In this document: positions 1 to 24,544 of the stretch, in pieces | How positions within the stretch are numbered: the stretch's first letter is position 1 | How the letters are laid out: the number at the start of each line of letters is the position of its first letter | Assembly (NCBI GenBank): GCA_035549015.1 | Contig: DASZRW010000135.1 | Location: 3,387 to 67,386 of the forward strand | DNA length: 64,000 bases | Source of the DNA: Candidatus Kapaibacterium sp. | GTDB taxonomy: Bacteria > Bacteroidota > Ignavibacteria > OLB7 | Direction: 5' to 3' | Translations under genes and position numbers: made by a program | The notes under the pieces: model-generated | Database searches by the model: none | What the model saw: the letters and a program-made list of their open reading frames with translations, nothing else | Told to the model about the DNA's origin: nothing

Positions 1-899
1 GCGACAAGATCCGCTCCGTGATCGCAAGCGGCACCTACAGCTCCTATCTCGGCGATTCGAATCTCGCGGACGAAGTGGAACTGGTGAAGTTCACACCGAT
101 CCCGCTGTCGCTGGAGGAACTCTCCAAACTCTGGTCCGTGTTCTTCCAGACGCAGTACAATCTCTCGATCGCCTATCAGGCAACCGTTGTTCTGATCGAT
201 GCGGATATGGCGCCGGTATCGCCGCTCCCCGTTCGCACGGCGAACTTCTATACGACACCGTACCAGCAGATCGTGGTGGACAAGGTTGTCAACAGTCTGG
301 ACCCGCTGCAGCCGATCACGCCATCCGATACGATCAGAATCATCGGGAGCGGACTCGATGCCGGCACGATGATGGTGCGGATCGGCGATGCCGAGGTTAC
401 GCCTGCAACCGTTTCGCCGAACGAACTGACCCTGGATCTCACAACGGTTCCGTCGGCATCGTTGAGCGCCGGGGTGCAGGGACTGCAGGTGGTGAAGAAG
501 GGTTCCTTCGGAGCGCCGCTCGTGCCCGGCGGCGATCCGGCTCCGCACACGGTGGCGGAGTCGAACGTGGCGCCGTTCGTGGTACGTCCGCTGATCACGG
601 CCGCCATCACGGCCAGCACGGACCTGGACGACGTTACCACCATCACGGTGCACGTGGCGCCGACGGTTGCCATGGAACAGCGTGTGTTGCTGCTTCTGAA
701 CGAGACAGCATCCTCCACGCCGGACTCGTACGCACTGCTCGCACCCGCGCGCGATGCCGATGGCACCACCGTCGTCTTCACGGTGAAGGGAGCAAAGGCC
801 GCCACCTTCCTGGCACGCATCCAGGTTGATGGTGCGGAAAGCCTGCTGACACGCGATGCGGATGAAACATACAACGGTCCCACGGTGACGCTGCCGTAG
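1..899 (+). CDS. 3' part of an eCIS cap/tail-terminator-like gene (DUF4255/Afp16-like C-terminal region) with an IPT/TIG-like beta-sandwich extension; 5' end lies outside the window
   Basis: The frame is open from the window edge and stops at 899. The LSLEELSKLWSVFF...LSIAYQATVVLID segment resembles the conserved C-terminal end of DUF4255 cap proteins as I recall them. A T/V/P-rich Ig-like stretch follows. It sits next to phage-tail-like genes. Confidence 0.4.
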   Translation, partial: DKIRSVIASGTYSSYLGDSNLADEVELVKFTPIPLSLEELSKLWSVFFQTQYNLSIAYQATVVLIDADMAPVSPLPVRTANFYTTPYQQIVVDKVVNSLDPLQPITPSDTIRIIGSGLDAGTMMVRIGDAEVTPATVSPNELTLDLTTVPSASLSAGVQGLQVVKKGSFGAPLVPGGDPAPHTVAESNVAPFVVRPLITAAITASTDLDDVTTITVHVAPTVAMEQRVLLLLNETASSTPDSYALLAPARDADGTTVVFTVKGAKAATFLARIQVDGAESLLTRDADETYNGPTVTLP

Positions 900-950
900 C
901 GCGCGCCACGGTTGATGCCGGGGAACGAAACCAGGGCCCGCGCTCCGCAG

Positions 951-1030
951 GCAGCGCGCAACAGATACGGAGGCAGCGCGCAACGGATGCGGAGGCTGCA
1001 CCGCAACGGGTGCGGAGGCTGCACCGCATG
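951..1030. repeat. About 3.5 tandem copies of a 22-bp imperfect direct repeat (GCAGCGCGCAACAGATACGGAG-like) in the intergenic region
   Basis: Copies are read directly at 951-972, 973-994, 995-1017 and a partial copy from 1018. They lie between the cap-like gene stop and the next start. Confidence 0.6.
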
Positions 1031-1150
1031 CAGCATCCTCTGCGTCCTTCGCGGCGCGGGGAACCGTTGAGCCGGAGCCCGGCTGATCGATACCATACAA
1101 CGTCATGCCGGCATGCCTGGAGCTGCCGGCAATCCACCATCCACGGAACA

Positions 1151-1600
1151 ATGATCCCCCAGACTATCGGCCGCTACGCGGAGCGTGATGTCGTGCTCCG
1201 AACCTTCTCCACGCTCGACGATGCAGGGGTGGACCGCCATCCCGAGGCGGCGCTGCTTCTGTGGGTCCTGGATCCTGGTTGGGAGGTTGAACGGTTTGCC
1301 GATGCCGTGGCACGATTGCTGGAATCGCCCGTTGCCTTTCTCACCGTCTCCGGCCCGCGCATCGAGGAGATGTTCATGGCCATGATCGATACCATGAACG
1401 GCTGGCCCACCGAGCCGACCACCGTCATGAATGTGATTGCGGGACTGAACGTTGCGGACAGCCTCCACGAGTTCCTGGATGCGGCGTCCGGGCATGGCGG
1501 CGCTGGGACGGACATGGTGATCGTTCTGGTCGGCGATCCGGAGATCACCGGGATCGTTGGCGGCATGCTGGCAGATTGCATGGGGGAGATCGGCGGGTAG
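1151..1600 (+). CDS. hypothetical protein (149 aa)
   Basis: ATG at 1151 inside the 1010..1600 ORF. The sequence is compositionally protein-like with no recognisable motif. It has its own intergenic spacers and is not translationally coupled. Confidence 0.45.
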   Translation: MIPQTIGRYAERDVVLRTFSTLDDAGVDRHPEAALLLWVLDPGWEVERFADAVARLLESPVAFLTVSGPRIEEMFMAMIDTMNGWPTEPTTVMNVIAGLNVADSLHEFLDAASGHGGAGTDMVIVLVGDPEITGIVGGMLADCMGEIGG

Positions 1601-1963
1601 CCGTTCGTGTATCGGGTGAGCATTGCAACAAAGATTCCTGCACGGGACTCTTTCACTGGACGTTGTGTTTCCCTATGTTTGTGCAACCATCATACGCGCA
1701 GCAATTACCGCGAGAATCCGGCAGAGAACGGATCTGTTCCGTGCCAGGCCAGCTGCCGCGGATGATGACGATGCAGGTGTGCACGGCCTTCATTCCAGAC
1801 GTGATGAAGCCCGAGCCTGTACGGTGAAGGGGCGGATGCCGCGAGGGCTGCGCTCTCACCGAGCACCACGGCACAATCGAACCCGAACGCAATAGTCCGG
1901 CCCGGCATCCGCATGCACCTGCTGTGGGGCCGTGCCCATGCACCACTACACCATACATGCACC

Positions 1964-2461
1964 ATGGCACGATTGTTCATTCAATGCGCCGGTGTTCTCC
2001 TGCTCGGCTCGTTGCTCGTGGCAGGCCGCAACATCCTGGGAACGGAAGCAGCGCCGAGGCATGGCAGGCTTCTCGAGAAAACCAATGGTCTGGCGATCGA
2101 ACTTCCGGACTCGCTGTTCGCGGAAGAGATCGATAACGGCTTCATCGTCTCGGCACAGGGTCCGAAGGATTTCCGGTATCCGGAGGAGGTGGAGATCGTC
2201 GGGGCGAAGCCGGAGGAGATGAAGCACCCGAACACGGCTTCATGCAGGACCGTGGGGAACGCAACCATGTACTATCGCTACGATGTGATTCCGATCGGCT
2301 ACGGACATCGCCACCGCCTTACCGCATGGTTCGAACAGAACGGACGTGTGATTCGGCTGCAGCAGATCGATCGTAATCAATGCACCGGCGCTCCCCGTTT
2401 CGATCTCCTCTGGGAGATTGCTCCGCACGTGGCGGTTCGTGCCGCCGAGCGGCGAAGCTGA
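1964..2461 (+). CDS. secreted hypothetical protein (165 aa) with an N-terminal signal peptide
   Basis: An internal ATG at 1964 gives MARLFIQCAGVLLLGSLLVAG, a hydrophobic signal-like N-terminus. The part upstream of this Met is His/Arg-rich and non-protein-like. Confidence 0.5.
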   Translation: MARLFIQCAGVLLLGSLLVAGRNILGTEAAPRHGRLLEKTNGLAIELPDSLFAEEIDNGFIVSAQGPKDFRYPEEVEIVGAKPEEMKHPNTASCRTVGNATMYYRYDVIPIGYGHRHRLTAWFEQNGRVIRLQQIDRNQCTGAPRFDLLWEIAPHVAVRAAERRS

Positions 2462-2510
2462 ACGGCGCAACCGAACGCGAAGCCGCGCGGCAAAGCCGGG
2501 CGGAGGGTAG

Positions 2511-3782
2511 TTGGAGAACAGGTATGACACCATCACTTCGATGAACGTGCATTCGAGAAGCATCCCGCGTCGCGATGGACTTCTGCACCCGCACATGCGA
2601 CTGCTTGGCCGCGATCTGCCGGCCTTTCATCTCTGTGCGATCGCCGGTCTGGTTGCCGGCATGGCGTTGGTTACGGCGCTGGCGCTCAGGCTTGGCCTTG
2701 CACCCCTTGTCGAGGCAGGGCTGGCGGCGATAGCCGTTGCGCTTTTTCTCCTCTATGCGATGATGCACAAGGTGATCACGGGGGAGGAGTCGTTGGTGCA
2801 CTATCGCGCGCTCCTGATGGTGACGGCCGGAGTGGCGTCTGCTGCATGGTTTGCGGGGCTTCCGGTTCTGCGTTTCATGGATATCACCATCCTCGGTGTG
2901 GGAACGTTCGCAGCCTTCGGCAGGGTTGGCTGCCTGATGGTGGGATGCTGCCACGGACGTCCCAGCCGCCGCGGCATTCGTTATCGCGAGGAGCATGCAC
3001 GCAGCGGCTTCCCGCGATCGTTCGTGGGGGTGCCGCTGCTTCCCGTACAGGCGGTGGAAGCGGTGGCGCTCGCGGCCATCGTGGCCGGCGGCTGTGCCAT
3101 CCTTCTTGGTGGCGCACGCCCCGGAAGCGCTCTGGCGTGGTACTTCGTTGCGTACGGCACGCTCCGCTTCGGTCTGGAGTTTCTGCGGGGTGATGCGGAC
3201 CGGCCGTACATGCTTGGATTTTCGGAGGCGCAGTGGACAGCGGTTGTCGTCGTTGCCGCACTCTGCGTTGCCGGCTACTGCGGCGCCCTGCCGGTGCTGC
3301 CGTGGCACAGTGGAATGCTTGGGGCCCTTGCAATGGCAATGGTTGCCGTTGCGGCAGGGCGTGGTATGGACAACGACGAGTGCTTTCAACTTCTTCATCC
3401 CGTGCACGTGTCCGAACTGGCTCGCATTGTGGCAATGCGGCGCGCAGAGCCGCGCATGCAGGGGGATGAGTTCGATTCAGCGGCGAGTGCACGTCCGATC
3501 GTTACCTCGCGTGGCGTCAGCGTCACGGGGGGATTGATCGGAATGGCTCGGGGGACTTCGTACTATTTCGCGCTCTCGCGCCGAGGACACCGCTTCGGTC
3601 TCCAAGGCACGCAGCGGCTGGCGGAGCTGATGGTACTGCTCTGCAACGGCCGAACGTGGGAGCTTGTCCGGGGACGTTGGGGTGTGGTGCATCTGTTGAT
3701 CGATGTACAGCCCCGCGGTTCCGGCGGCCATGAGAGCGCCACGAAGAAGGAGGCGTTCTATCCGTCTCTTGCCGGGGAGTAG
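2511..3782 (+). CDS. polytopic membrane protein with an Lgt (prolipoprotein diacylglyceryl transferase)-like core and a ~150-aa C-terminal soluble extension
   Basis: There are multiple hydrophobic helices. GRVGCLMVGCCHG aligns in spacing with the Lgt signature G-R-x-G-N-F-x-N-G-E but carries Cys where Lgt has Asn/Glu. YGTLRFGLEFLRGD resembles the Lgt RFxxEFxR motif. The true start may be a downstream Met at 2541 or 2595. Confidence 0.45.
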   Translation: MENRYDTITSMNVHSRSIPRRDGLLHPHMRLLGRDLPAFHLCAIAGLVAGMALVTALALRLGLAPLVEAGLAAIAVALFLLYAMMHKVITGEESLVHYRALLMVTAGVASAAWFAGLPVLRFMDITILGVGTFAAFGRVGCLMVGCCHGRPSRRGIRYREEHARSGFPRSFVGVPLLPVQAVEAVALAAIVAGGCAILLGGARPGSALAWYFVAYGTLRFGLEFLRGDADRPYMLGFSEAQWTAVVVVAALCVAGYCGALPVLPWHSGMLGALAMAMVAVAAGRGMDNDECFQLLHPVHVSELARIVAMRRAEPRMQGDEFDSAASARPIVTSRGVSVTGGLIGMARGTSYYFALSRRGHRFGLQGTQRLAELMVLLCNGRTWELVRGRWGVVHLLIDVQPRGSGGHESATKKEAFYPSLAGE

Positions 3783-3889
3783 ACCAGGTTGCGCAGGGCA
3801 GCGATAGCTGCGCACCTGCCGGGCAATCCCGAGGCTTCACCACAACCCGTACACCCCGCAACGCGGGCATCGCTGAAGGTCCATGCACT

Positions 3890-4828
3890 ATGTCGAATGG
3901 AATCTATGCACACTTCCATATAGCCCCCGGGAAACGAACGCCGAGCGACATCTTCTCCAAGATGGTTGCGGCGGTGTCCTCCTGGGAGGAAGCAGATAAC
4001 GAGTGGAAGAGTTTGAAGGTCTTTGATGGAGCGCTCGATACATGTGTCGTTGAACGATACGGCGCATTGACATCCGGCGAGGTTCTGGCCGCCACCAGAC
4101 AATGCCGGAGCCAGACGTTGAGTATCTGGAGCGATCTCTCATTCCGATGCTGGCACACTGCGGCCGGGCGACCCTTCCAGGGGTTCGAAGGCTCTACGAT
4201 CATCGCACGCGGCGATGAATGGTTGGGACGCCACGGAGCCGATCGGCGCCTTCGTGGGAATGCGGAGCTCTCCGTGTGGGAGCGGGCCCCCTTCTCCATC
4301 CTCGATGTGAAGGAGTTCGGTCCCGAAGCGGATGCCTGGAACCGCCACGTGGAGGAGAATCTGGAGATCCTGACGGCCGGCATCTTCCGTGCCATCGAGT
4401 CGCTGAAGCCGACGTCGGTGAAAGTCTACGATGGCTTCGGGGAATACCTGCCGGTGAACGCCAACTTGGCCTACTATCGGAACGAGGCCGAAGTGCTGGC
4501 CGATCTGCGATTCATGGCGGAGTTCTGGGAACGCGGCGACGGCACCGGCCAGGTGCCGCCGTTGAAATTCGGCTACAACCGCAAGCATCGAAGCCTGCTG
4601 GGCGCGCTGCGCAACGAGGCCGCGCGCGAGCGCCTGTGGCGGTCGTTGACCGCTGGGCTTGCGAATATCGGCAACGTGACCGAACGGAATGTGCGCGACG
4701 TGCTGGACTCCGGCCAGTTCGACTACTACGCAATGCCGGTGGGGTTCACCGTGCTCGATCATCCTGGATTCATGAATTCCTATCTCCACGATTTCTACCT
4801 CGCCGTGTTGAAGGCGCCGGTGGAATAA
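3890..4828 (+). CDS. hypothetical protein (312 aa)
   Basis: Clean ORF with balanced composition and no motif I can name. It lies in the gap between the cap-like and ATPase genes. Confidence 0.5.
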   Translation: MSNGIYAHFHIAPGKRTPSDIFSKMVAAVSSWEEADNEWKSLKVFDGALDTCVVERYGALTSGEVLAATRQCRSQTLSIWSDLSFRCWHTAAGRPFQGFEGSTIIARGDEWLGRHGADRRLRGNAELSVWERAPFSILDVKEFGPEADAWNRHVEENLEILTAGIFRAIESLKPTSVKVYDGFGEYLPVNANLAYYRNEAEVLADLRFMAEFWERGDGTGQVPPLKFGYNRKHRSLLGALRNEAARERLWRSLTAGLANIGNVTERNVRDVLDSGQFDYYAMPVGFTVLDHPGFMNSYLHDFYLAVLKAPVE

Positions 4829-4854
4829 GCCGGAGAAGGCTGCGACCGAACTCT

Positions 4855-4893
4855 TCCGGATGCATTCCGTCCGGATGCATTCCGTCCGGATGG
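4855..4893. repeat. Tandem 15-bp direct repeat (CCGGATGCATTCCGT, two copies plus a partial third) upstream of the ATPase gene
   Basis: Read directly as ttCCGGATGCATTCCGtCCGGATGCATTCCGtCCGGATGG. Confidence 0.55.
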
Positions 4894-4997
4894 CTGGAAT
4901 TCCCAACGCCCGGCGCCTCGATGCGGACCGTACGTCGGCATCGGGGCCCTGCCGGGTAATGGCGGTACGGAGCACGAATCGTTAACGGAGCTCATCG

Positions 4998-6980
4998 ATG
5001 CGAACCACTCGGGAGCATGACGGACATGCGGAGAATCTTGAGGCCATGGCCCCGGCCATCGCCGGCATCCGCGAACTGCTTGTACGGCATATCAACCGGC
5101 AGGCCGGCTCCGCAATCATGCAGGAGGCGCCGGCCGTGCGTGGGAGTGAAGGCGATGGTGATCCGTTGGCGCCGCTGCCGCCCGCGCTGCTGGCGCTGGC
5201 GGAGATCTTCGGCCTGACAGGATTCGAGACGAAGCTGTTGCTGCTTGCCGCCGCAACGGAGCACGATCCTGCGATCGGAATGCTTGCCGCGACCGCACTC
5301 GGCAACGAGACCATGCCGCATGCAACGTTCGGCCTGGCGTTCTCGCTCTTCGGCGAGGCGCCGCAATGCGTTCCATCGCCGGAGCGGCCGCTGCGCCGCT
5401 GGGAGCTTGTGACGCTGGTGGAGGGGACCAGCCTGGTGACATCGCCGATACGGATCAACGAGCGGATCTATCACTATCTGTTCGGTGAGGAGTACGTGGA
5501 CGAACGGCTCCGCGGGTTCCTTCGGCCCGTTGAGCATGCCGGCGAGCTTGCCCCCTCGCATCGGGATCTGGTGGTACGCGGCGAGCGTCTGCTGGCGGGC
5601 GCGCGCAATGCCGGCGAGCCGATGGCGATACAGTTGTGCGGCGGTGCGGGGGATGACCGGCTTGGGATTGCCGCTGCCGTTGCCGTGCGCTCGGGAGCCG
5701 CTGCCTTCCTGATACGCGCCGGAGACATTCCGGCGGCCGTCCGCGAGCGGGAGACGCTTCTCACGCTCTGGAACCGGGAGGCGATGCTGGAGGGACGGAT
5801 GATCGTGATCGATTGCGACGGCGCCGATGCGCAGCATCTGGCGCGGGGCGTGGCTTCGTTCGCCGACGGCGTGCACGGAGTGCTGTTCGTGAGCACGCCG
5901 GAGCCTGTTGCATTCGCGTCAAGGCAGCTTGTTCGCATCGATGTCCGGAAGCCTTCCTCCGCGGAGCAGCGCGACATGTGGGAGAGCGTGCTGGGTGATA
6001 TCGCCCTCCGGTTGAACGGGCAGGTGAATCAGGCCATCTCGCAGTTCAATCTCGGCGCCGGCCGCGTGCGCGCGGCAGGAACGGTGGTGCGCGAAGCCGC
6101 GCCGCACCTGGATGCGAAGCATCTGGGCGATCTGCTCTGGGAGACCTGCCGGCTGCAGGCCCGGCCGCGTCTGGACGATCTGGCGCAGCGCATCGAACCG
6201 GCGGCTGCGTGGGACGATCTGGTTCTGCCCGAAGGAGCGCTTGCAACCATTCGCGAGATCGCGGCGCATGTGCGCCAGCGTATGCGCGTCTATCTGGAGT
6301 GGGGATTCGCCCGTGCATCCAGCAGGGGACTCGGCATCAGCGCCATGTTCGCCGGAGCGAGCGGCACCGGCAAGACCATGGCGGCGGAGGTGCTTGCGGC
6401 CGAGCTGCGGCTGGATCTGTATCACATCGATCTGAGCCAGGTGGTGAGCAAGTACATCGGGGAGACGGAGAAGAACCTGCGCCGGATCTTCGATGCTGCG
6501 GAGGAAGGAGGAGCGGTGCTCCTGTTCGACGAGGCGGATGCGTTGTTCGGCAGGCGGAGCGAGGTGAAGGACTCGCACGACCGCCATGCGAACATCGAGG
6601 TGAGCTATCTGCTGCAGCGAATGGAGAGCTATCGCGGGCTGGCGATTCTGACAACGAACATGAAGGGGAGTGTGGACCCCGCATTCCTGCGGCGCCTGCG
6701 GTTCGTGGTGGACTTCCCCTTCCCCGATGCGGCGCACCGGATGAGGATCTGGAGCCGCATCTATCCGGACACCGTGCCGTGCAGGGGGCTGGACGTCGAG
6801 AAGCTCGCACGTCTGGATGTGTCGGGCGGGAATATCAGGAACATCGCGCTCAACGCCGCCTTCCTCGCGGCGGAGGAGAATACCGCCGTTCAGATGCGTC
6901 ACATCCTGGCCGCCAGCCGGAGCGAGTATGCCAAGCTGGAGAAGCAGCTTACCGGGGTAGAGACGGGAGGCTGGATCTGA
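4998..6980 (+). CDS. eCIS-associated AAA+ ATPase (Afp15/Pvc15-like, CDC48-type D2 domain)
   Basis: Walker A GASGTGKT, Walker B LLFDEAD, and the C-terminal helical AAA lid. A long N-terminal region is typical of Afp15-like ATPases. SD GGAG lies 7 nt upstream of the ATG. Confidence 0.85.
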   Translation: MRTTREHDGHAENLEAMAPAIAGIRELLVRHINRQAGSAIMQEAPAVRGSEGDGDPLAPLPPALLALAEIFGLTGFETKLLLLAAATEHDPAIGMLAATALGNETMPHATFGLAFSLFGEAPQCVPSPERPLRRWELVTLVEGTSLVTSPIRINERIYHYLFGEEYVDERLRGFLRPVEHAGELAPSHRDLVVRGERLLAGARNAGEPMAIQLCGGAGDDRLGIAAAVAVRSGAAAFLIRAGDIPAAVRERETLLTLWNREAMLEGRMIVIDCDGADAQHLARGVASFADGVHGVLFVSTPEPVAFASRQLVRIDVRKPSSAEQRDMWESVLGDIALRLNGQVNQAISQFNLGAGRVRAAGTVVREAAPHLDAKHLGDLLWETCRLQARPRLDDLAQRIEPAAAWDDLVLPEGALATIREIAAHVRQRMRVYLEWGFARASSRGLGISAMFAGASGTGKTMAAEVLAAELRLDLYHIDLSQVVSKYIGETEKNLRRIFDAAEEGGAVLLFDEADALFGRRSEVKDSHDRHANIEVSYLLQRMESYRGLAILTTNMKGSVDPAFLRRLRFVVDFPFPDAAHRMRIWSRIYPDTVPCRGLDVEKLARLDVSGGNIRNIALNAAFLAAEENTAVQMRHILAASRSEYAKLEKQLTGVETGGWI

Positions 6981-7450
6981 TGAGCGCCGCCGCCCCACAT
7001 GGAGCCACCCCCGCCGGCGACAACGCCCCTGCGGGCGGCAATGCTGCGGCAGTGCCGGCCATCGAGCCGGCGGTGCCGCGGCGCAGCACCGATCGGGGGG
7101 GCGATCGCCCGACGGCGACACGCGAACCCGCCCCGTTGCCTGATGCTCCGGTGAGGTCTGCACCGCCGCGCGAAACGGAACGCAGCAGCCGCCCGCGGCT
7201 GGAGCTTTCCATCGGCGAGCTTGTACTGCACGGCTTTCCCGAGCAGATGCGCGAGCGGGTTGGGGCCGCAATCCAGCGTGAACTGGAGCGACTGTTCGCC
7301 GACGATGAAACGCTTGGCCGGAATTCCTCCGCGAGCGATCATCTGGAGATCGAAGGGGGAGCATTCACGATGCAACCGGGAACCCCGCCGGAAATTGCCG
7401 GACGCGAAATTGCCCGGGCAATCGCGCGCGGCATGCGTGCAGGGCGATGA
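6980..7450 (+). CDS. small hypothetical protein (156 aa) translationally coupled to the ATPase
   Basis: Its ATG at 6980 overlaps the ATPase TGA as ATGA. It is the in-frame tail of the 6209..7450 ORF, whose upstream part is Arg-rich junk that overlaps the ATPase. The N-terminal half is Ala/Pro-rich and the C-terminal half is structured. Confidence 0.5.
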   Translation: MSAAAPHGATPAGDNAPAGGNAAAVPAIEPAVPRRSTDRGGDRPTATREPAPLPDAPVRSAPPRETERSSRPRLELSIGELVLHGFPEQMRERVGAAIQRELERLFADDETLGRNSSASDHLEIEGGAFTMQPGTPPEIAGREIARAIARGMRAGR

Positions 7451-17046: not shown

Positions 17047-19311
17047 ATGAGCGAGACCAACGAACGCCTGTACAATCTGCTTCCGGCCATCTACCGGGCA
17101 CGCGACCTGACGGTTGGAGGGGAGACACTCCGGGCCCTGCTCGGCGTGCTCGAGACCGAGTTCAATTCCGTTGTCGACGACATCGACACGTTGTACGACG
17201 ACTGGTTCATCGAGACATGCCAGGAGTGGGTTGTGCCGTACATCGGCGATCTGCTGGGCGTGCGCCCGTTGAACGAGATCGTAAACGGCGAGTTCACGCG
17301 GCGCGCCTACGTGGCAAACACGTTCGCCTATCGCCAGCGGAAGGGAACGCCGGCCGTGATAGAACAGCTTGCGCGCGATGTCACCGGATGGCCGGCGCGG
17401 ATCGTGGAGTATTTCAAGCTGCTCGCGGTTACCCAGAACTACAACCACTCGCGCCCGGCGAATCAGTTGCTGGATCTTCGGCATCAGAGCGATCTGGAAT
17501 TGCTCGGCTCGCCGTTCGAGAAGGCCACCTACAGCCCGGAGGTGCGAAGGATTGCGCTGCAGCGCGGCAAGTACAACATTCCGAGCGTGGGCATCTATCT
17601 CTGGCGCCTGCAGGCATATCCCCTCGTGCGCGTGGATGCCGCTCCGGTGCTGGCCTCCGAGCGTTCCGATCACGCAGGCCTGTTCCGCTTCAGCCCGCTC
17701 GGCAACGACACGCCGCTGTTCAATCGGCCGCAGACCGAGGCCAGCATTACCACGTTTGCCGGTGAGGTGAACGTGCCGGGACGCCTTCGCAGGCGGCCCC
17801 TGTACGACGAGTTGGAGGAGCGCCGGCGGCTGATGTTGCTGGGGCAGTCCGGGGAGCCGGTCTACTTCGGGCCGCAGCCGGTTCTGGAATTGTTCACGCA
17901 CGCCACCGGAGCGCCCGCCAACACATACGTGGCGGTGCCCCCCGAGAATATCAGCATCTGCGATCTCTCCGATTGGCGCCGCCCCACCGATGCGTCCGGG
18001 CTGATCTCCGTCGATCCCGTTCTGGGGCGCATCTCGTTCGCGGCCCATGCAACCACCGATGCGGTGCGTGTGAGCTATCAGTACGGGTTCAGCGCCGACG
18101 TCGGCGGAGGCGTGTACAACCGCAGCGAAACGCTTGCGCCGGCCGACGACATCAACAACCTGAACATCTTCGTCTCGAAGGAGTATCCGGCCACGGTGAC
18201 CGATACCACGCTGGAGGATACCTCGCACGAGCTGCGGGTGAACTCGATCGCGGCTGCAGTTGCGTACTGGGCCGGCAAGCCGCAGTTGCACTGCGTTGTC
18301 GAGATCCGCGACAGCGCCACCTACACGCAGCCAATCAGCGTGACGTTCACACCGCCCGCCGATCCGGATCTCGGACTCTCGCTGAGAATCCAGGCTCGAG
18401 ACGGGGAGCGGCCGGCATTGATTCTGGGTTCCGGCGCTATCAAGATCACGTCACACCATCCGCGCTCCACGCTCACGCTGAACGGGCTGTTGATCAGCTG
18501 CAATGAGATCTCGGTTGCCGGCGATCTCGGCGAACTGGATATCGTTCACTGCACCGTGGTGCCGGGACGTTCGCTTGGTCCGGACGGCACGCCTGCCGCG
18601 CCGAGCGATGGGAACAGTCTGAACGTGGATGCCACGAACAACCGCCTCGTCGTCAACATCACATCGAGCATCGTGGGGCGCCTTCTGGTGCCGCTGGAGA
18701 TGCGCTCGCTCACGATCACGGACAGCATCGTCGACGGGCTGGATGGCCCCGCGATCTACGGCGGCGAGTCCGTGGTGCTCGAATTCGATGCGATGCCGCA
18801 TTCGATCGGCGGCGGAACCGGAGGTTCGCTGGCGCACGGCATGGGGGACCTCCTGGCCGGCGCACCGACGTCGATCATCAGAAGCACGGTGTTCGGTCCG
18901 GTCTTTGTCGCGGAGCTTGCCTACGCCTCCGAGAGCATCTTCACCGATATCGTGGAAGCGCGCCGGCGACAGTCCGGCTGCGTTCGCTTCTGCTATCTGC
19001 CGGTGGAATCGAAGACACCGCGCCGCTATCACTGCCAGCCGGAAACCGCCGCGAGTTCGGACATCACCGTCGTATCGGACAACGCGGCCCGGCGTGTGGT
19101 GCCGGAATTCACCTCCACGCACTACGGCGACCCCGGTTACGCACAGCTGACAATCACCACCGCCATCGAGATCAGAACAGGCGCCGAAGACGGCTCCGAA
19201 ATGGGAGTCTACTGCCAACTGAAGGGACCGCAACGAGAAGCAAATCTGCGCATCGGACTCGACGAGTACATGCGTCTTGGGCTCGACACTGGAATTTTCT
19301 TCGTCACCTAA
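17047..19311 (+). CDS. P2 gpI-like phage tail/baseplate protein (754 aa)
   Basis: The N-terminal ...YNLLPAIYRARD... matches the Tail_P2_I family opening. It follows the J-like genes as in P2-like and Pvc clusters. Confidence 0.55.
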   Translation: MSETNERLYNLLPAIYRARDLTVGGETLRALLGVLETEFNSVVDDIDTLYDDWFIETCQEWVVPYIGDLLGVRPLNEIVNGEFTRRAYVANTFAYRQRKGTPAVIEQLARDVTGWPARIVEYFKLLAVTQNYNHSRPANQLLDLRHQSDLELLGSPFEKATYSPEVRRIALQRGKYNIPSVGIYLWRLQAYPLVRVDAAPVLASERSDHAGLFRFSPLGNDTPLFNRPQTEASITTFAGEVNVPGRLRRRPLYDELEERRRLMLLGQSGEPVYFGPQPVLELFTHATGAPANTYVAVPPENISICDLSDWRRPTDASGLISVDPVLGRISFAAHATTDAVRVSYQYGFSADVGGGVYNRSETLAPADDINNLNIFVSKEYPATVTDTTLEDTSHELRVNSIAAAVAYWAGKPQLHCVVEIRDSATYTQPISVTFTPPADPDLGLSLRIQARDGERPALILGSGAIKITSHHPRSTLTLNGLLISCNEISVAGDLGELDIVHCTVVPGRSLGPDGTPAAPSDGNSLNVDATNNRLVVNITSSIVGRLLVPLEMRSLTITDSIVDGLDGPAIYGGESVVLEFDAMPHSIGGGTGGSLAHGMGDLLAGAPTSIIRSTVFGPVFVAELAYASESIFTDIVEARRRQSGCVRFCYLPVESKTPRRYHCQPETAASSDITVVSDNAARRVVPEFTSTHYGDPGYAQLTITTAIEIRTGAEDGSEMGVYCQLKGPQREANLRIGLDEYMRLGLDTGIFFVT

Positions 19312-19327
19312 TCACAGGAGTATATAC

Positions 19328-22300
19328 ATGCAAGGCGATTTCACTCGATCGACATTCGACCCGAAGAAGCATTACAGCGGCGTCCGGATGCAGCAGGGGC
19401 GTGTGCAGCTCGATGCAGACTGGAACGAGCAGGTCGATATCGATACGCACCGCGACCAGACCACCACAGCCGATGTGATCGGGCCGTCCGGCGTGCCCGT
19501 TCTCCCGGACGGCACGGCGAACGGTTTCAAAATCATGCTGCCGGGATTTGCCGCGGCCGAGACCAACATGCAGATCGGTGCAGGCCGCATCTACGTTGAT
19601 GGCGTGCTCTGCGAGAACGAGGAGACGGTGTTCCTCTCCACGCCAACGTCTCCGTTCACGGGCAACCGCCAGCCGGACTACGATGACCCTTCGCACAGCA
19701 ACGGCTATCACATCGTCTACCTCGATGTCTGGGAGCGGCACATCAACGCCATTGAGGATCCCTCGATTCGCGAAGTGGCGCTGGGCGGACCGGACACGGC
19801 AACCCGTACGAAGACGGTGTGGCAGGTAAAGACGTTGCCGATCACCTCCCACGGCTCGGGGCCGCTGCACTGTACGGACGAGTTCGCCGAATGGGATGTC
19901 GCCACCGCCCCCTCCTCCGGCAGGCTCACCGCGCGCACGGAGCCCGCACCCAGCAGCGATGGGATCGATCCCTGCATCATTCCACCGAACGCCGGATATC
20001 GCGGCCTGGAGAATCAACTGTATCGCGTCGAGATCCATCGTGTGGATACGGACGGAACGGTTACCTACAAGTGGTCGCGCGACAACGCATCGTTTCAGTA
20101 CGGTCTTGTGGAGTTCGACGCCAACACCGGCGTGGGCGATCCCACGCTGACGGTAACCAGCCTTGGCCGCGATCAGAACTCGAGCCTGGAGGTGAACGAC
20201 TGGATCGAGTTCCTGCCCGCCACGTGGGAGCTTGGCGGCATACCGGGAATCCTTGCCAAGATCACGGCCATCAGCACCACGGACAAGCGTTTGACGCTCC
20301 TGATTCCAGGGAGCGAAGGGGATGCCTCCGACGTTGATGGTGCGATCGGCGCCGGATATATCGTAAAGCGATGGGATTTCGTCGCCACGGTTCCCCCAAC
20401 CACCAAGATCAATGTGGGGGACACACCCGCCTGGATTCCGATCGAGAACGGCGTGGAGATCCGGTTCGAGCCGGGCCTGGGGGGGACCTACAAGGATGCC
20501 TTCCACGTGGGCGACTACTGGATGATCCCCGCGCGCGTCGCCACGCAGGATATCGAATGGCCGTTGGACTCGATGAACCAGTCCATCGCTCTTGCGCCGA
20601 TGGGGATCAGGCATCGCTATGCGCGTCTGGCCCTGGCGCAGTGGACGGATGACGGCTGGGATCGTGTTACGCTGAAGGATTGCCGCCCGACGTTTCTCCC
20701 GCTCACCGGCGTGCCGACACTGGTGTTCGGCTATGCCGGCGGCGACGGCCAGGAAGCCGCTCCCGGCGATGCGCTCCCGATGTACCTGGAGGCTTCCGTG
20801 GTGGAGCGCGGGAAGAAGGTGATCGGTGCGAACGTCAAGTTCACCGTGAAGCTCGGCAATGGCAAGCTTCGCAAGCTGGATGCAGGCGTTCTCGATACCG
20901 TCTACGGCCAGTCCGTCATCGCACCCACCAGCATCAACGGCGTTGCGCAGTGCGAGTTCACGCTGGACCTCGTTACCGAGATCCAGCAGGTTGAGGCGGT
21001 CCTGCTGGATGACGACGGCCTGGTACGCCCGCTCAACGTGATTCACTACAATGCCACGTTCTCCGATGCAGGCAGCAGCTTCACATACGTTGGCGGCGAT
21101 GGCCAGGAGGGGCTGCCGGGCGACTATCTGCGAATGCCGCTGGAGGTTGGTGTCAACCGGAACGGCAAGGCGGTTGGCGGCGCCAGGGTGCGCTACACCG
21201 TTACACGCGGAAACGGTTCGCTGCAGGCCACGCAGATCGCGGGCACGATTGTCACCCTTGTCATGGGGCCTCAGATCATCACGCAGACTGCAGGCGACGG
21301 CGTTGCGAAGTGCGAGTTCCTGCTCGATACCTTCACGCGCGATCAGCAGGTGGAGGCGCGCCTTCTCGACGACGACGACAACACGATCAACGTAACGCCG
21401 ATTCACTTCGACGCCTCGATCCGCTCCAACGTGGAGTTCCTCTACGTTGGCGGCGATGGCCAGGAGGGGCTCCCCGGCGCGCAGCTCGCCGTGCCGTTCG
21501 AGGCCGGGGTAGTGGACGGCGCCGTGAAGCTTCAGGGTGCGAACGTGCAGTTCACCGTTATCAGGGGGGGAGGGTCCATCGTTCCTGCCGGAGGAGGGAG
21601 TCCCGCAACACAGGTTGTGGTGCAGACCGGGCCGGACGGTGTGGCCGGCGTTTATCTGACGCTCGATGCGATCACGCCGGTGCAGCAGGTGCGTGCAGTT
21701 CTCATCGATGGCGAAGGGTCGCCGTTGAACTATACCCCGCTTCATTTCACGGCCGCCCAGGGCCTTGCGCGCGACATCGCCTACACTCCCCCCACCGGCT
21801 GCACCAAGTTCGCCGAGAGTACGACCGTGCAGGAGGCGCTGGACTCGCTCTGCGCGTGCGACTGCGCGGAGTGCCCGCCGATCCTCCATGTTACCGGCGT
21901 CTTCCTCGGCACCGGCACGCCGGCGTTGGGGCCGGAGATCCACTCCGGGGCAACGATTCCGGTGGACTCGTTGCTGCAGGGCATTCGCATTCAGACCGAT
22001 GCGAACGTGGACTCCTTCTCCGTGAAGCCGACCACGGTCTACGGCGAGGTGGAATTCCCCTATCCGATCACGCCGAGCGAGCGCCAGGAGTACGGCCTGG
22101 ACACCATCGATCCCGGCCTGCCGCTCGATGATCAGATCATCGGATATCGTCCGATCGGCGTCCGCTCGCTCGTTTCGGTGGACACGTACGACAACAGTGT
22201 TATCCACTGGGACCCGCAGGCGAATGCCGTGGCACCGCTCGTGCTTGCGTACCACCAGTATCTGCCCGCAGGCACGAAGATCCCGGTGAAGGTGATCGTG

Positions 22301-24544
22301 CGTGGAACGCAGATCTGGGCCGAAGGAGATCCGGCGCGGCTGCTCACCGGGACGGTGTCGCCGGGGACATCGAATTCCGATCCCGCATCAGGCAGGAATT
22401 GCGATCAGCCGGGAGACTTTGTGTTCAACCTGAATGTGTTCGTGCCTACATCGCCCGATCCGTGCCCGCAGATCACATCGGTGATCTTCGATACGCCGAT
22501 CATATCCGGGCAGCCTGCCACGGGCATTATCCAGTTCGACAAGGCGCTGGCGATCGGCGGTGGTGCGAACATGCAGTTCCTCACCGTGCAGAGCGACAAC
22601 AACGCCGTGATTCAGCCGACCGGCATCACGCTGGTTCCGCGGCCGCTCGCCGGGGATACCGGGCATGCCACTACGTTCAACTTCTCGATTCCAACCGAGT
22701 CGCGCCCGACGGCCGACAGGTCTGCACCGGTGGTTCACCTGACCTTCATTTCGGTGAACGGGCAGGATCCATGCCAGCGCAACTTCACGAGCACTGTGAC
22801 GGTCAATCCCGTGCCGTGCCCGCCGGTTGTTTCCTCCACCTTCACGCAGTCGGTCACCGTTGGCCAGCCGATCACCGGACGGATCAAGTTCGCCGAGGCG
22901 TACCAGGTGCAGCGTACGCTCACCATCACCAGCGACCATGCGGACTCCATCGTCCCGAATCCTGCGCCGTTCACGGTTCCGGCAGGGGCGCAGTTCATCG
23001 ACGTCACCATCCCCACGAACGCCGCATCGCCGCTGGACCAGCGTACGCCTGTGGTGCTGACTGTCAACGATCCGTGCGCCGGCCAGGGCGGCGGCGGCCA
23101 GGGTGGCGGCGGCTCATCCACGGCCACGACCGGAACGGTCTATGTTGATCCGATTCCGTGCGAGCATATCGCGCAGTTCTCGTACGATCCGGTGATCGGC
23201 GGCAACGACATCACGCTGCATCTCACGTTCGATCGCCCGCTGTCGCAGGCGCGCACGATCAACTTCAGCAGCAATCCGAGCGTGATCGAGACCAGGAGCG
23301 TGACGCTCACGCCGGCTTCCGGACAGGTGAGCTACAACGTGGTGCTGCATACGACGCAGGTGACCAACACTACCGACGTTCTGATCGCCATGGATCCGTG
23401 CGGCACCGTGGTACGATTCCCGGTGACCGTGAGCAGTCCGCCGTGTGACGATGTCGTGTCGTTCACGGTAGACACCTCCGTTATCGGCGGCCAGGTCCTG
23501 CACGGAACGCTGACGCTGGCGACTCCGCCGGCGGCCAATCGCGACATCGTTGTGCACGTTGACAAGGCATATCAACCCTATATCAACGACGGCCAGGTGA
23601 TTCACGTTACGGCCGGAAGCTCTACGGTGACGCAGTTCACATTGAACACCAATGTCGTCACCGACGTCTCGCACGATGCGGTGATGTGGATCAATCCGTG
23701 CGGCACCGTCGTGTCGGTTGGCACAACGGTCACCAAGATGCCGTGCGAGCTGGTGCAGGATTGGAACTTCCCGTCCGACGTGTACAGCGGCGGAACCATC
23801 AACGGGGTCTCGGCATACTTCAGCTCGCCGGTGGTCTCCACCGAACCGGTCGTCTTCTCCTCCAGCGTTCCGGGCCTCTTCCCCGACATCGTGATACCGG
23901 TGACCGCCGGGGCCACGAGGGTGACGCAGACCGTGCCGGTGGATGTCGCAACGGTGCCTGCCGATACGGCGTTCGACGTGATCGTCACGCGCTGCGGCAG
24001 GGAGATCTTCCGTATCCATCGCGTGATCAAGACGAACGTGATCGACTGGCCGCGAATCAAGGCGGTGACGTACTTCAATCCCGACGCGCCGGCCTCGGCG
24101 TATCAGGTGCACGTTACCACACCGGGTGCCGTTCCGCAGGTCGATATGCGTGAGCTCGGGCTTGCCACGCCGAACAACCGGCTCGGAGTCAAGGTGCAGT
24201 TCTGCGATGTGCTCCCGGATCCGGCAACGCTGAACGATACCAACTTCCGGGTTCTGCAGATCGGCTCCACCACGCCGGTGCCGGTCATGACCAGAGACAT
24301 GGTTGGCGACACGGCGATTCTGACGATCGGTGCGTGGAACCTGACCCAGGGCGGACACTACCAGCTCCAGCTGCGCGGCGCCGGAACCGGTGTGATCGCT
24401 ACCTCCAGCGGAAAGCCGCTGCATGGAGCGTTCGACGTGGTGTTGGATGGAACCGCGTGTACCGGAACGTCAACTACCGGAAGCACGGGCTCTGACTTCA
24501 TGACCAACTTCACGCTGGTCTTCGGGCCCGGAGCGGCAGGCTGA
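19328..24544 (+). CDS. giant multi-domain putative tail fibre / adhesin-like protein (1738 aa) with invasin-type Big_1-like Ig repeats and Cys-bracketed ~95-aa repeats
   Basis: ATG at 19328 has SD AGGAG 8 nt upstream. The N-terminal domain DFTRSTFDPKKHYSGVRMQQGRVQLDADWNEQ looks conserved. Three VGGDGQEGLPG...V(K/R)FTV...G repeats follow, then five to six PCP...DPCG repeats and a GQGGGGQGGGGSS linker. Confidence 0.6.
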   Translation: MQGDFTRSTFDPKKHYSGVRMQQGRVQLDADWNEQVDIDTHRDQTTTADVIGPSGVPVLPDGTANGFKIMLPGFAAAETNMQIGAGRIYVDGVLCENEETVFLSTPTSPFTGNRQPDYDDPSHSNGYHIVYLDVWERHINAIEDPSIREVALGGPDTATRTKTVWQVKTLPITSHGSGPLHCTDEFAEWDVATAPSSGRLTARTEPAPSSDGIDPCIIPPNAGYRGLENQLYRVEIHRVDTDGTVTYKWSRDNASFQYGLVEFDANTGVGDPTLTVTSLGRDQNSSLEVNDWIEFLPATWELGGIPGILAKITAISTTDKRLTLLIPGSEGDASDVDGAIGAGYIVKRWDFVATVPPTTKINVGDTPAWIPIENGVEIRFEPGLGGTYKDAFHVGDYWMIPARVATQDIEWPLDSMNQSIALAPMGIRHRYARLALAQWTDDGWDRVTLKDCRPTFLPLTGVPTLVFGYAGGDGQEAAPGDALPMYLEASVVERGKKVIGANVKFTVKLGNGKLRKLDAGVLDTVYGQSVIAPTSINGVAQCEFTLDLVTEIQQVEAVLLDDDGLVRPLNVIHYNATFSDAGSSFTYVGGDGQEGLPGDYLRMPLEVGVNRNGKAVGGARVRYTVTRGNGSLQATQIAGTIVTLVMGPQIITQTAGDGVAKCEFLLDTFTRDQQVEARLLDDDDNTINVTPIHFDASIRSNVEFLYVGGDGQEGLPGAQLAVPFEAGVVDGAVKLQGANVQFTVIRGGGSIVPAGGGSPATQVVVQTGPDGVAGVYLTLDAITPVQQVRAVLIDGEGSPLNYTPLHFTAAQGLARDIAYTPPTGCTKFAESTTVQEALDSLCACDCAECPPILHVTGVFLGTGTPALGPEIHSGATIPVDSLLQGIRIQTDANVDSFSVKPTTVYGEVEFPYPITPSERQEYGLDTIDPGLPLDDQIIGYRPIGVRSLVSVDTYDNSVIHWDPQANAVAPLVLAYHQYLPAGTKIPVKVIVRGTQIWAEGDPARLLTGTVSPGTSNSDPASGRNCDQPGDFVFNLNVFVPTSPDPCPQITSVIFDTPIISGQPATGIIQFDKALAIGGGANMQFLTVQSDNNAVIQPTGITLVPRPLAGDTGHATTFNFSIPTESRPTADRSAPVVHLTFISVNGQDPCQRNFTSTVTVNPVPCPPVVSSTFTQSVTVGQPITGRIKFAEAYQVQRTLTITSDHADSIVPNPAPFTVPAGAQFIDVTIPTNAASPLDQRTPVVLTVNDPCAGQGGGGQGGGGSSTATTGTVYVDPIPCEHIAQFSYDPVIGGNDITLHLTFDRPLSQARTINFSSNPSVIETRSVTLTPASGQVSYNVVLHTTQVTNTTDVLIAMDPCGTVVRFPVTVSSPPCDDVVSFTVDTSVIGGQVLHGTLTLATPPAANRDIVVHVDKAYQPYINDGQVIHVTAGSSTVTQFTLNTNVVTDVSHDAVMWINPCGTVVSVGTTVTKMPCELVQDWNFPSDVYSGGTINGVSAYFSSPVVSTEPVVFSSSVPGLFPDIVIPVTAGATRVTQTVPVDVATVPADTAFDVIVTRCGREIFRIHRVIKTNVIDWPRIKAVTYFNPDAPASAYQVHVTTPGAVPQVDMRELGLATPNNRLGVKVQFCDVLPDPATLNDTNFRVLQIGSTTPVPVMTRDMVGDTAILTIGAWNLTQGGHYQLQLRGAGTGVIATSSGKPLHGAFDVVLDGTACTGTSTTGSTGSDFMTNFTLVFGPGAAG

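Follow-up and report, generated by a model that had tools for sequence, protein, structure and literature searches.

A putative accessory gene block with an Lgt-fold membrane protein and two immunity-type genes in the cargo region of a Candidatus Kapabacteria extracellular contractile injection system

We examined four genes in an extracellular contractile injection system (eCIS) locus of a Candidatus Kapabacteria metagenome-assembled genome (MAG). The locus lies in a 64-kb stretch of DNA, here called the window, by which all positions are numbered; related genome loci that were compared with it carry L-numbers. A mostly complete eCIS operon runs along the plus strand from position 1 to 29,337, and its identity comes from Pfam matches to Pvc16, an AAA ATPase, CIS_tube, GPD, Phage_base_V, gp25, two Baseplate_J proteins, and P2_I. 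The window opens with the 3' part of a cap/terminator-like gene (positions 1 to 899, plus strand; Pvc16_N, PF14065, 4e-14; IPT/TIG, PF01833). This gene is truncated at the window start and can be seen at full length in L001 (417 amino acids [aa], on a longer contig) and in L005. An eCIS AAA+ ATPase gene (4998 to 6980, plus strand; Afp15/Alg15-like, with WHD and AAA domains; PF00004, 1e-24; PF22977, 2e-13) forms the 3' boundary of the block studied here. It is followed by genes for a 156-aa small protein, CIS_tube, GPD, Phage_base_V, gp25, two Baseplate_J proteins, and a P2_I-like protein. Between the cap-like gene and the ATPase gene lie genes A to D, all on the plus strand: gene A (1151 to 1600; 149 aa), gene B (1964 to 2461; 165 aa; Tsi3 family), gene C (2511 to 3782; an Lgt-fold membrane protein of 423 or 413 aa), and gene D (3890 to 4828; 312 aa; cytoplasmic). 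The product of gene D is 100% identical to an NCBI entry named Candidatus Kapabacteria. The two lengths of gene C reflect its start codon: the 423-aa form begins at a TTG, and in the sister MAG, NCBI places the start at the ATG that corresponds to position 2541, which gives 413 aa.

Genes A to D are real, and all four are under purifying selection. They show a GC excess at third codon positions (GC3, 0.69 to 0.76; GC2, 0.45 to 0.50) that is typical of the genome, and their ratios of nonsynonymous to synonymous substitution (dN/dS) against the sister MAG locus, L008, are low (A, 0.17; B, 0.10; C, 0.10; D, 0.045), with the L008 proteins having 90 to 98% amino acid identity to their counterparts in the window. 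The original prediction, which was made from the letters of the window, had described four nonstructural plus-strand genes of 149, 165, 423, and 312 aa between the cap-like gene and the ATPase, and this is what we found. It had also described genes with spacers of their own next to a translationally coupled structural operon, which agrees with the spacing: 251, 363, 49 (79 from the gene C ATG), 107, and 169 nucleotides (nt) separate the genes around and within the block, whereas the downstream structural genes overlap or abut (6980/6980, 9023/9025, 13906/13909).

Gene C belongs to a widespread family. Its product matched PF01790 (LGT) with 59.4 bits against a cutoff of 24.9 (E = 4.2e-16; profile positions 82 to 235 of 240). 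We found more than 200 homologues of ∼400 aa that are conserved over ∼90% of their length, including the C-terminal extension, and that share 35 to 44% identity across phyla. A genome scan gave 169 loci of this family in at least eight phyla: Acidobacteriota, Chloroflexota, Bacteroidota, Cyanobacteriota, Planctomycetota, Desulfobacterota, Myxococcota, and Pseudomonadota. Among cultured strains, homologues occur in Calothrix sp. NIES-4105, Variovorax ureilyticus P51, Roseateles chitinivorans P36, and Mitsuaria sp. PDC51. The earlier description of the region as one of poorly conserved spacer genes thus does not fit gene C, whose family is both widespread and tied to eCIS and DUF4157 genes.

The gene neighborhood of the family was counted in 80 of the 169 loci, with 10 kb fetched on each side. 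A DUF4157/eCIS_core gene was present in 70 loci, usually adjacent to gene C, and the ATPase gene was present in 39. The direct upstream and downstream neighbors of gene C included one cluster of 63 proteins; among the large direct neighbors, PF13699 was found in 58/80, with others matching HopA1, EndoU, DAGK_cat, or trypsin in curated Pfam. The usual place of the family is between the ATPase gene and the tube-like gene. In three loci (L006, L007, L010), gene C lies inside the structural operon and overlaps or abuts the next gene. One of these, a Bacteroidota MAG, has gene C inside the baseplate block, between spike/PAAR-like genes and gp25 (L010:9151-12600), and no DUF4157 gene was found in the 21 kb fetched there. 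Published studies describe DUF4157 proteins as eCIS cargo loaded into the lumen, with loading mediated by the ATPase. We therefore read gene C as a conserved companion of the cargo module and not as variable cargo.

Public annotation names the protein a prolipoprotein diacylglyceryl transferase, and together with the Pfam LGT match this would fit a housekeeping Lgt or one of its paralogues lying in the locus by chance. We regard this as very improbable. The scores fall far below the NCBIfam equivalog cutoffs for Lgt (TIGR00544, 23.1 against 118.9 bits; NF000778, 50 against 334 bits), and a DUF4157 gene, a CIS-type AAA ATPase gene, or an eCIS structural gene was present in 74 of the 80 loci. 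The altered signature motif, the extra helix and domain, and the reversed charge bias described below speak against it as well. We found no paper that links contractile injection systems or eCIS with a diacylglyceryl transferase or PF01790, and the Pfam enrichment table of Geller et al. (PMC8213781) lists LGT in 2 eCIS genes, not enriched (q = 0.89). Gene C therefore seems to represent a conserved, hitherto undescribed accessory family linked to eCIS and DUF4157 genes.

The AlphaFold2 model of the C protein (pLDDT, 90.3; pTM, 0.88) has eight helices (residues 38 to 60, 65 to 90, 97 to 114, 119 to 144, 179 to 199, 206 to 222, 239 to 256, and 264 to 286), followed by a conserved C-terminal α/β domain of ∼115 aa at about residues 290 to 400. 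A Foldseek search of the Protein Data Bank (PDB) returned Escherichia coli Lgt (5AZB) as the top and sole high-probability match (probability, 1.00; E = 2e-3; 294 columns). An Lgt-like protein with a soluble C-terminal extension had been proposed for this gene, and the profile match and the model both agree with that proposal. Nothing significant was found when the single C sequence was searched against the PDB, and a profile of the C-terminal domain gave only spurious matches to designed helical repeats.

We mapped the residues of the C protein through a hidden Markov model (HMM) alignment to E. coli Lgt, with the E. coli residues as in Mao et al. and invariance judged among 93 sequences. E. 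coli R143, Y235, R239, E243, and R246 correspond to R138, Y215, R219, E223, and R226, which are invariant and have the same spacing, and the equivalents of G145, G150, and G154 are also kept. The Lgt signature motif, GRLGNFINGELWG (G142-RLGNFINGELW-G154), is replaced in the C family by GRVGCLMVGCCHG (G137-RVGCLMVGCCH-G149), with the consensus GRxGCxxxGCCHGRP. In this replacement, Cys, Val, Cys, and His take the places of N146, N149, E151, and W153, respectively; all three cysteines of the motif are invariant, and the histidine is nearly so. In E. coli Lgt, N146, N149, and E151 select phosphatidylglycerol, and E151A and E151Q are inactive. The HGGL segment with which the third transmembrane helix of Lgt starts (from H103 in E. 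coli) is absent; E-E-x-L-x-Y-Y-H-H-E precedes the helix aligned with that helix, in a segment that aligns poorly.

The membrane orientation also appears to differ from that of Lgt. Four helices precede the head loop, which places the N terminus and the head on the same side, as they are in Lgt, and the eighth helix puts the C-terminal domain there too. Lysine and arginine are concentrated on this side (∼11.6: N terminus, 4.8; next loop, 0.4; head, 4.0; last loop, 2.4), with a further basic stretch after helix 8, compared with a total of ∼1.8 in the four short loops of the opposite side. E. coli Lgt, whose head is periplasmic, served as a control and has 5 such residues on the head side and 13 on the other. 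In addition, a soluble PF03692 (CxxCxxCC) module of 200 to 260 aa that lacks a signal peptide is fused to the N terminus of three family members (P0059, P0104, P0123) and to the C terminus of another (P0083). Based on the charge bias, the E. coli control, and the domain fusions at either end, we predict that both termini are cytoplasmic and that the cavity opens to the cytoplasm. The C protein is thus probably inverted relative to Lgt, with a putative active site that faces the cytoplasm.

As an inner membrane protein of Lgt fold in this orientation, C would have its cavity, its head, and both termini on the side where eCIS particles are assembled and loaded, and it would act on cargo or particles, or dock them, at the membrane's inner face, possibly as a lipid (or other) transferase with a cytoplasmic thiol substrate or as a membrane adaptor. 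In the latter case it would resemble CisA of Streptomyces coelicolor, a membrane protein encoded in the CIS cluster that lies outside the particle and is needed for firing (PMC12237407); the Lgt fold would be a mere, catalytically inert scaffold, and the C-terminal domain would recruit particles or cargo loading. We take this possibility seriously without favoring it. The CisA precedent, the conserved soluble domain that is predicted to be cytoplasmic, the replacement of the essential E151, and the loss of HGGL all argue in its favor. On the other side stands the strict conservation of what looks like a site: R138, Y215, R219, E223, R226, D228, R231, and the Cys triad are invariant, and H148 nearly so, across many phyla. 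From this pattern we would expect an active, ligand-binding, or metal-binding site and not a bare scaffold.

The enzymatic version of the proposal is that C would be an upside-down Lgt-fold enzyme whose Cys-Cys-Cys site modifies (for example, lipidates) or processes DUF4157 cargo or particle components before or during loading. We offer it tentatively and consider it rather doubtful. A possible target came from the cargo proteins themselves. A four-Cys motif, LQRKCxCG-x(7-10)-CxxC(K/R)KK..LQR, precedes the DUF4157 domain in 30 of 168 DUF4157 open reading frames (ORFs), from 18 of 70 loci, and occurs in only 2 of the 2,604 other ORFs of the same loci; it was seen in L015, L019, L020, L023, L024, L029, L037, L039, L040, L043, L044, L050, L056, L059, and L085. 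The motif, possibly a zinc knuckle, is a candidate for the place where the Lgt-like protein interacts with cargo or modifies it; the LQRKCxCG...CxxC motif of many cargo N termini could, on the enzymatic reading, be the target of C.

The second gene of the block that could be assigned to a family is gene B. Its product passes the cutoffs of both PF22211 (28.0 bits; cutoff, 26) and NF038331 (49.8 bits; cutoff, 45). A profile built from four members (the window, L008, L002, and L013) matched 3WA5_B, the Tse3-specific immunity protein of Pseudomonas aeruginosa, with an E value of 5.4e-7, aligning query positions 9 to 155 with chain positions 2 to 142; the single sequence gave no match in the PDB. 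The N terminus is hydrophobic and forms a signal-like or anchor segment (MARLFIQCAGVLLLGSLLVAG). As judged from sequence families, gene B is a homologue of Tsi3, and we infer that it encodes an exported, periplasmic, immunity-type protein. In the periplasm, it would protect as a Tsi3 homologue; Tsi3 blocks the muramidase Tse3. No Tse3-type effector gene adjoins gene B, whose neighbors are gene A and the Lgt-like gene.

The proximity of genes B and C raises the possibility that C lipidates B, which we rejected. A lipobox Cys is present in the L002 homologue (SVGC) and in P. aeruginosa Tsi3 (LLAC) and is absent from B of the window. In other words, the L002 protein has a lipobox and no gene C in the 4.8 kb recovered, and the window protein lies beside gene C and has no lipobox; lipidation of B by C is unlikely because the Cys is missing exactly where the two genes adjoin. 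The L002 fragment, which comes from a related eCIS, also encodes a PG_binding_1 plus CHAP peptidoglycan hydrolase ∼3 kb 3' of its Tsi3-like gene (L002:4029-4793). This protein, which has no counterpart in the window, may be a cell wall-targeting effector of L002.

Gene D had no match in Pfam or NCBIfam or in a single-sequence PDB search, and a profile of its family also found nothing among PDB sequences. Its close relatives are few: a search of 5.8 billion proteins yielded only 8 close homologues, each of them encoded next to an eCIS ATPase gene. The six loci of this sub-lineage all keep gene D next to the ATPase gene, on either side of it. The order is Lgt-like, D, ATPase in the window, L003, L008, and L013; ATPase, Tsi3-like, D in L002; and ATPase, D in L004. 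An exhaustive profile search extended the family to 153 representatives at 50% identity, most of them ∼310 aa long, and 50 members that were scanned had no Pfam match. A related-locus search with a narrower alignment of the family recovered only 2 loci from metagenomes and none from viruses.

The distant members of the D family occupy a different setting. In five of the five independent contexts examined, they start 10 to 18 nt after the gene of a large protein. This upstream protein is a 1,012-aa Rhs protein in L093 to L095 (L093:4947-7985), where VipB and Imm6 genes lie close by; a DUF4157/eCIS_core protein of at least 1,248 aa in L098 and L099 (L098:1-3747); and a protein of at least 1,330 aa in L100 (L100:1-3993). 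In the remaining two contexts (L088, 112 to 987; L090 to L092, L090:2-877), it is cut by the contig end. All five upstream proteins share one C-terminal domain of ∼165 aa (HMM E values, 1e-70 to 1e-80; pairwise identity, 35 to 43%) that has no Pfam match and contains a motif of PD-(D/E)xK type, [SA]xDVV-x13-E[AGC]KG. A D-family gene follows this toxin-type domain in every case seen. Polymorphic toxin-immunity pairs are typically arranged in this way, with a small conserved gene right behind a variable C-terminal toxin domain. Because the small gene directly follows the C-terminal toxin domain, we infer that the D family consists of the cognate immunity proteins of a PD-(D/E)xK-like, nuclease-like toxin domain, including the part of the role that concerns neutralization. 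The two would form a predicted toxin domain/immunity pair outside Pfam that is common to Rhs and eCIS cargo proteins. Gene D of the window is then predicted to be an immunity-type gene without a toxin beside it; its product would stay in the cytoplasm and would neutralize the nuclease-like domain carried by Rhs and DUF4157 proteins.

With putative immunity genes on both sides of it, gene C might itself be a protection or immunity factor against DUF4157 effectors that target membranes or lipids, or else a factor for particle lysis or release. That C directly adjoins DUF4157 effector genes in most loci is consistent with such a role, as is the report that many antibacterial eCIS toxins have no identifiable immunity genes (Geller et al., PMC8213781). 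Specific immunity proteins would be expected to behave otherwise than C, a single conserved family that accompanies DUF4157 proteins with diverse toxin ends (AHH, EndoU, HopA1, trypsin, DAGK). The family is also present in eCIS loci without DUF4157 in the recovered sequence, namely, the 64 kb of the window and the 21 kb of L010. We consider a protective or lytic role of C unlikely.

Gene A encodes an acidic protein (pI, 4.1) without a signal peptide that is expected to be cytoplasmic. It had no match in Pfam, NCBIfam, or the PDB, and its sole homologue among 5.8e9 proteins is the sister MAG copy, with 90% identity. The 149-aa start is supported: upstream of position 1151, indels that break the reading frame separate the window from the sister MAG, and the conserved stretch starts shortly before the ATG. 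A 190-aa call for gene A in L001 was rejected, since the sequence 5' of 1151 is noncoding. Gene A is a lineage-specific ORFan, perhaps another immunity gene or the gene of a small cargo protein.

These results bear on the idea that the four genes, especially those for the 149-aa and 312-aa proteins, encode novel payload toxins or effectors carried in the particle. The setting lends itself to this idea, as the region next to the cap and ATPase genes is variable and holds DUF4157 cargo genes in related loci; genes A and D match no known family, and A is lineage specific, as cargo often is. Nevertheless, we judge it improbable. Relatives of D stand in the position of immunity genes and not of toxin genes, B is Tsi3-like, and C is a conserved membrane protein with eight helices. 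None of the four has a match to DUF4157 (PF13699) or to a toxin domain in Pfam or NCBIfam, in agreement with the earlier observation that no toxin family could be recognized. Disordered N-terminal loading sequences have been described for eCIS cargo. A check for such sequences found that gene A has no coding N-terminal extension, the one called in L001 being noncoding, and that the N terminus of D, in contrast to a disordered loading sequence, is conserved and modeled, with low confidence, as a strand (residues 5 to 11) and a helix (18 to 30).

The original prediction of a payload and accessory region therefore holds for the accessory part, in that the block is a variable slot for cargo or accessory genes, and fails for novel cargo toxins, given the Tsi3-type B, the immunity-family position of D, and the conservation of C. 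Only gene A is left as a residual cargo candidate among the four. A particle-associated membrane function, also proposed for the block, is a live option for gene C. The same four genes do not recur at one place in all homologous loci: gene A was found only in the window and the sister MAG, genes B and D are confined to the sub-lineage and vary in order, and gene C is widespread and varies in position.

We think it fairly probable that these 4 kb hold the accessory genes of an eCIS cargo module and no toxin gene, with C as a conserved membrane factor, B and D as immunity-type genes, and A as an ORFan. Since neither cognate toxin was found in the window, B and D would be orphan immunity genes, directed against effectors of kin or competitors, or would counter cargo that is encoded elsewhere in the genome. 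In related loci, DUF4157 toxins and their probable immunity genes fill this region; in L013, for instance, two tandem pairs of a DUF4157/eCIS_core gene (629 and 564 aa) and an ankyrin repeat gene (584 and 607 aa) lie directly 5' of the Tsi3-like, Lgt-like, D, and ATPase block (L013:488-7859); the ankyrin proteins look like immunity partners.

Several observations weigh against this interpretation. Four DUF4157 proteins used as tblastn queries had no match in the window, and eCIS structural genes lie within 10 kb of gene C in only 33 of the 80 loci. For C, the structural match to 5AZB is moderate (TM scores of 0.39 and, target normalized, 0.55; root mean square deviation, 8.3 Å), a family profile did not match E. 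coli Lgt among PDB sequences, and the predicted topology is based on the charge bias, the number of helices, and the domain fusions. The immunity roles of B and D in this locus are drawn from homology and context. For B, Pfam scans of the ORFs of the eCIS region, which did not cover window ORFs beyond the tested set, found no muramidase. For D, an HMM of the toxin-type domain found no copy in the window or in L001 to L087, including the relatives of the sub-lineage; the upstream neighbor of D in the window and the sub-lineage is an Lgt-like, Tsi3-like, or ATPase gene and not a toxin gene; and the window protein is ∼30 to 36% identical to the members that adjoin toxins. Foldseek searches with AlphaFold2 models had been suggested as a check on the four proteins, and the one that identified the fold of C had no equivalent for D, whose model, for which 8 sequences were used, was of low quality (pLDDT, 60.9) and had no PDB match at an E value of ≤0.001.

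The spacers of the block contain two sets of tandem repeats. Three copies of a 23-nt repeat, CGCAACGGATGCGGAGGCTGCAC, lie at positions 957 to 1024 in the spacer 5' of gene A, and an alignment with L008 indicated that they are not kept in the sister MAG. Two exact copies of a 15-nt repeat, TCCGGATGCATTCCG, lie at 4855 to 4884 in the spacer 5' of the ATPase gene. Both sets were found by a repeat search, and they may be regulatory sites or products of slippage. A sigma-70 promoter scan of positions 800 to 5100 gave 0 sites, and the terminator-like matches in the same interval, all of them within gene C, were about as frequent as chance predicts.

Other genes of the operon are less easily classified. 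The 156-aa protein encoded at 6980 to 7450 (plus strand), which overlaps the ATPase stop codon, has an N-terminal half that looks disordered, with many Pro, Ala, and Arg residues, and a C-terminal part of ∼80 aa that is conserved (LELSIGELVLHGF...). It has no Pfam match. An iterated HMM search found relatives in 23 of the 80 loci of the Lgt-like family, directly 3' of the ATPase gene where tblastn placed them, and relatives are also present in L002 and L004. Near the operon end, a 1,755-aa DUF6519 protein (19277 to 24544, plus strand) is followed by a 1,564-aa protein with collagen triple-helix repeats (24643 to 29337, plus strand; GC content, 0.71, with strong GC skew), and the two are probably fiber or target-binding proteins. 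A 542-aa metallophosphoesterase encoded after the fiber genes (29404 to 31032) was considered as cargo and rejected, as it is a membrane-anchored protein of housekeeping type. Just 5' of the sequence covered by the window, L001 encodes a 705-aa protein without a Pfam match between the T4_baseplate-like and cap genes (L001:807-2924); acidobacterial relatives have a protein of ∼304 aa in this slot. The 705-aa protein may be a tape measure-like protein or an effector.

With its catalytic-type site and its genes next to cargo genes in at least eight phyla, the conserved membrane protein C is a testable candidate for cargo handling, for self-protection, or for the relation between particle and membrane. 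These are points on which published work leaves gaps: Geller et al. (PMC8213781) note missing immunity genes and leave the role of DUF4157 undetermined, and the Anabaena study leaves an "unknown thylakoid membrane protein." An Lgt-fold enzyme of inverted topology, if true, would also be of interest to enzymology. The analysis further defines two families outside Pfam, a putative toxin domain and a putative immunity family, that are common to Rhs and eCIS cargo, and the presence of two immunity-type genes in one locus suggests that this kind of eCIS serves conflicts between bacteria.

Among known systems, E. coli Lgt (PF01790; 5AZB) is the closest to C, which shares with it the Pfam match, the fold, and the catalytic residues with identical spacing. 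The E. coli enzyme has seven transmembrane helices, a periplasmic N terminus and head, and a cytoplasmic C terminus, and C is predicted to be arranged otherwise. C differs from it by having eight helices, a C-terminal α/β domain, an altered signature motif, and no HGGL, as well as by the reversal of its Lys/Arg bias, the soluble domains at either terminus, and its place in eCIS cargo modules and not in a housekeeping locus. CisA (PMC12237407) is likewise a membrane protein encoded in a CIS cluster, and its cytoplasmic domain is thought to link the particle to the membrane. As described, CisA is bitopic and restricted to Streptomyces, whereas C has an eight-helix Lgt fold with a catalytic-type site and occurs in at least eight phyla; it is by description only that we set the two apart.

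Tsi3 (PA3485; PDB 3WA5, 4LUQ, and 4N7S) is the periplasmic immunity lipoprotein of a type VI secretion system. Gene B shares its family cutoffs, a whole-length profile match, and a putative export-type segment at the N terminus, but it sits in an eCIS locus, has no Tse3-like gene next to it or found in the window, and lacks the lipobox Cys. With regard to polymorphic toxin systems (Rhs) and the eCIS toxin/immunity pairs of Geller et al. 2021 (PMC8213781), the distant D genes likewise directly follow a toxin domain, in an Rhs protein, a DUF4157 protein, and three others. They differ in that Pfam covers neither this toxin domain nor the D family and in that the D genes of the window sub-lineage have no toxin upstream and are kept by the ATPase gene. 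Finally, in comparison with DUF4157/eCIS_core cargo such as Cgo1 and Cgo2 of AlgoCIS and Alr3311 and Alr3312 of Anabaena, none of genes A to D carries DUF4157, but they occupy the same variable operon slot, and the family of gene C is the most frequent direct neighbor of such cargo genes.

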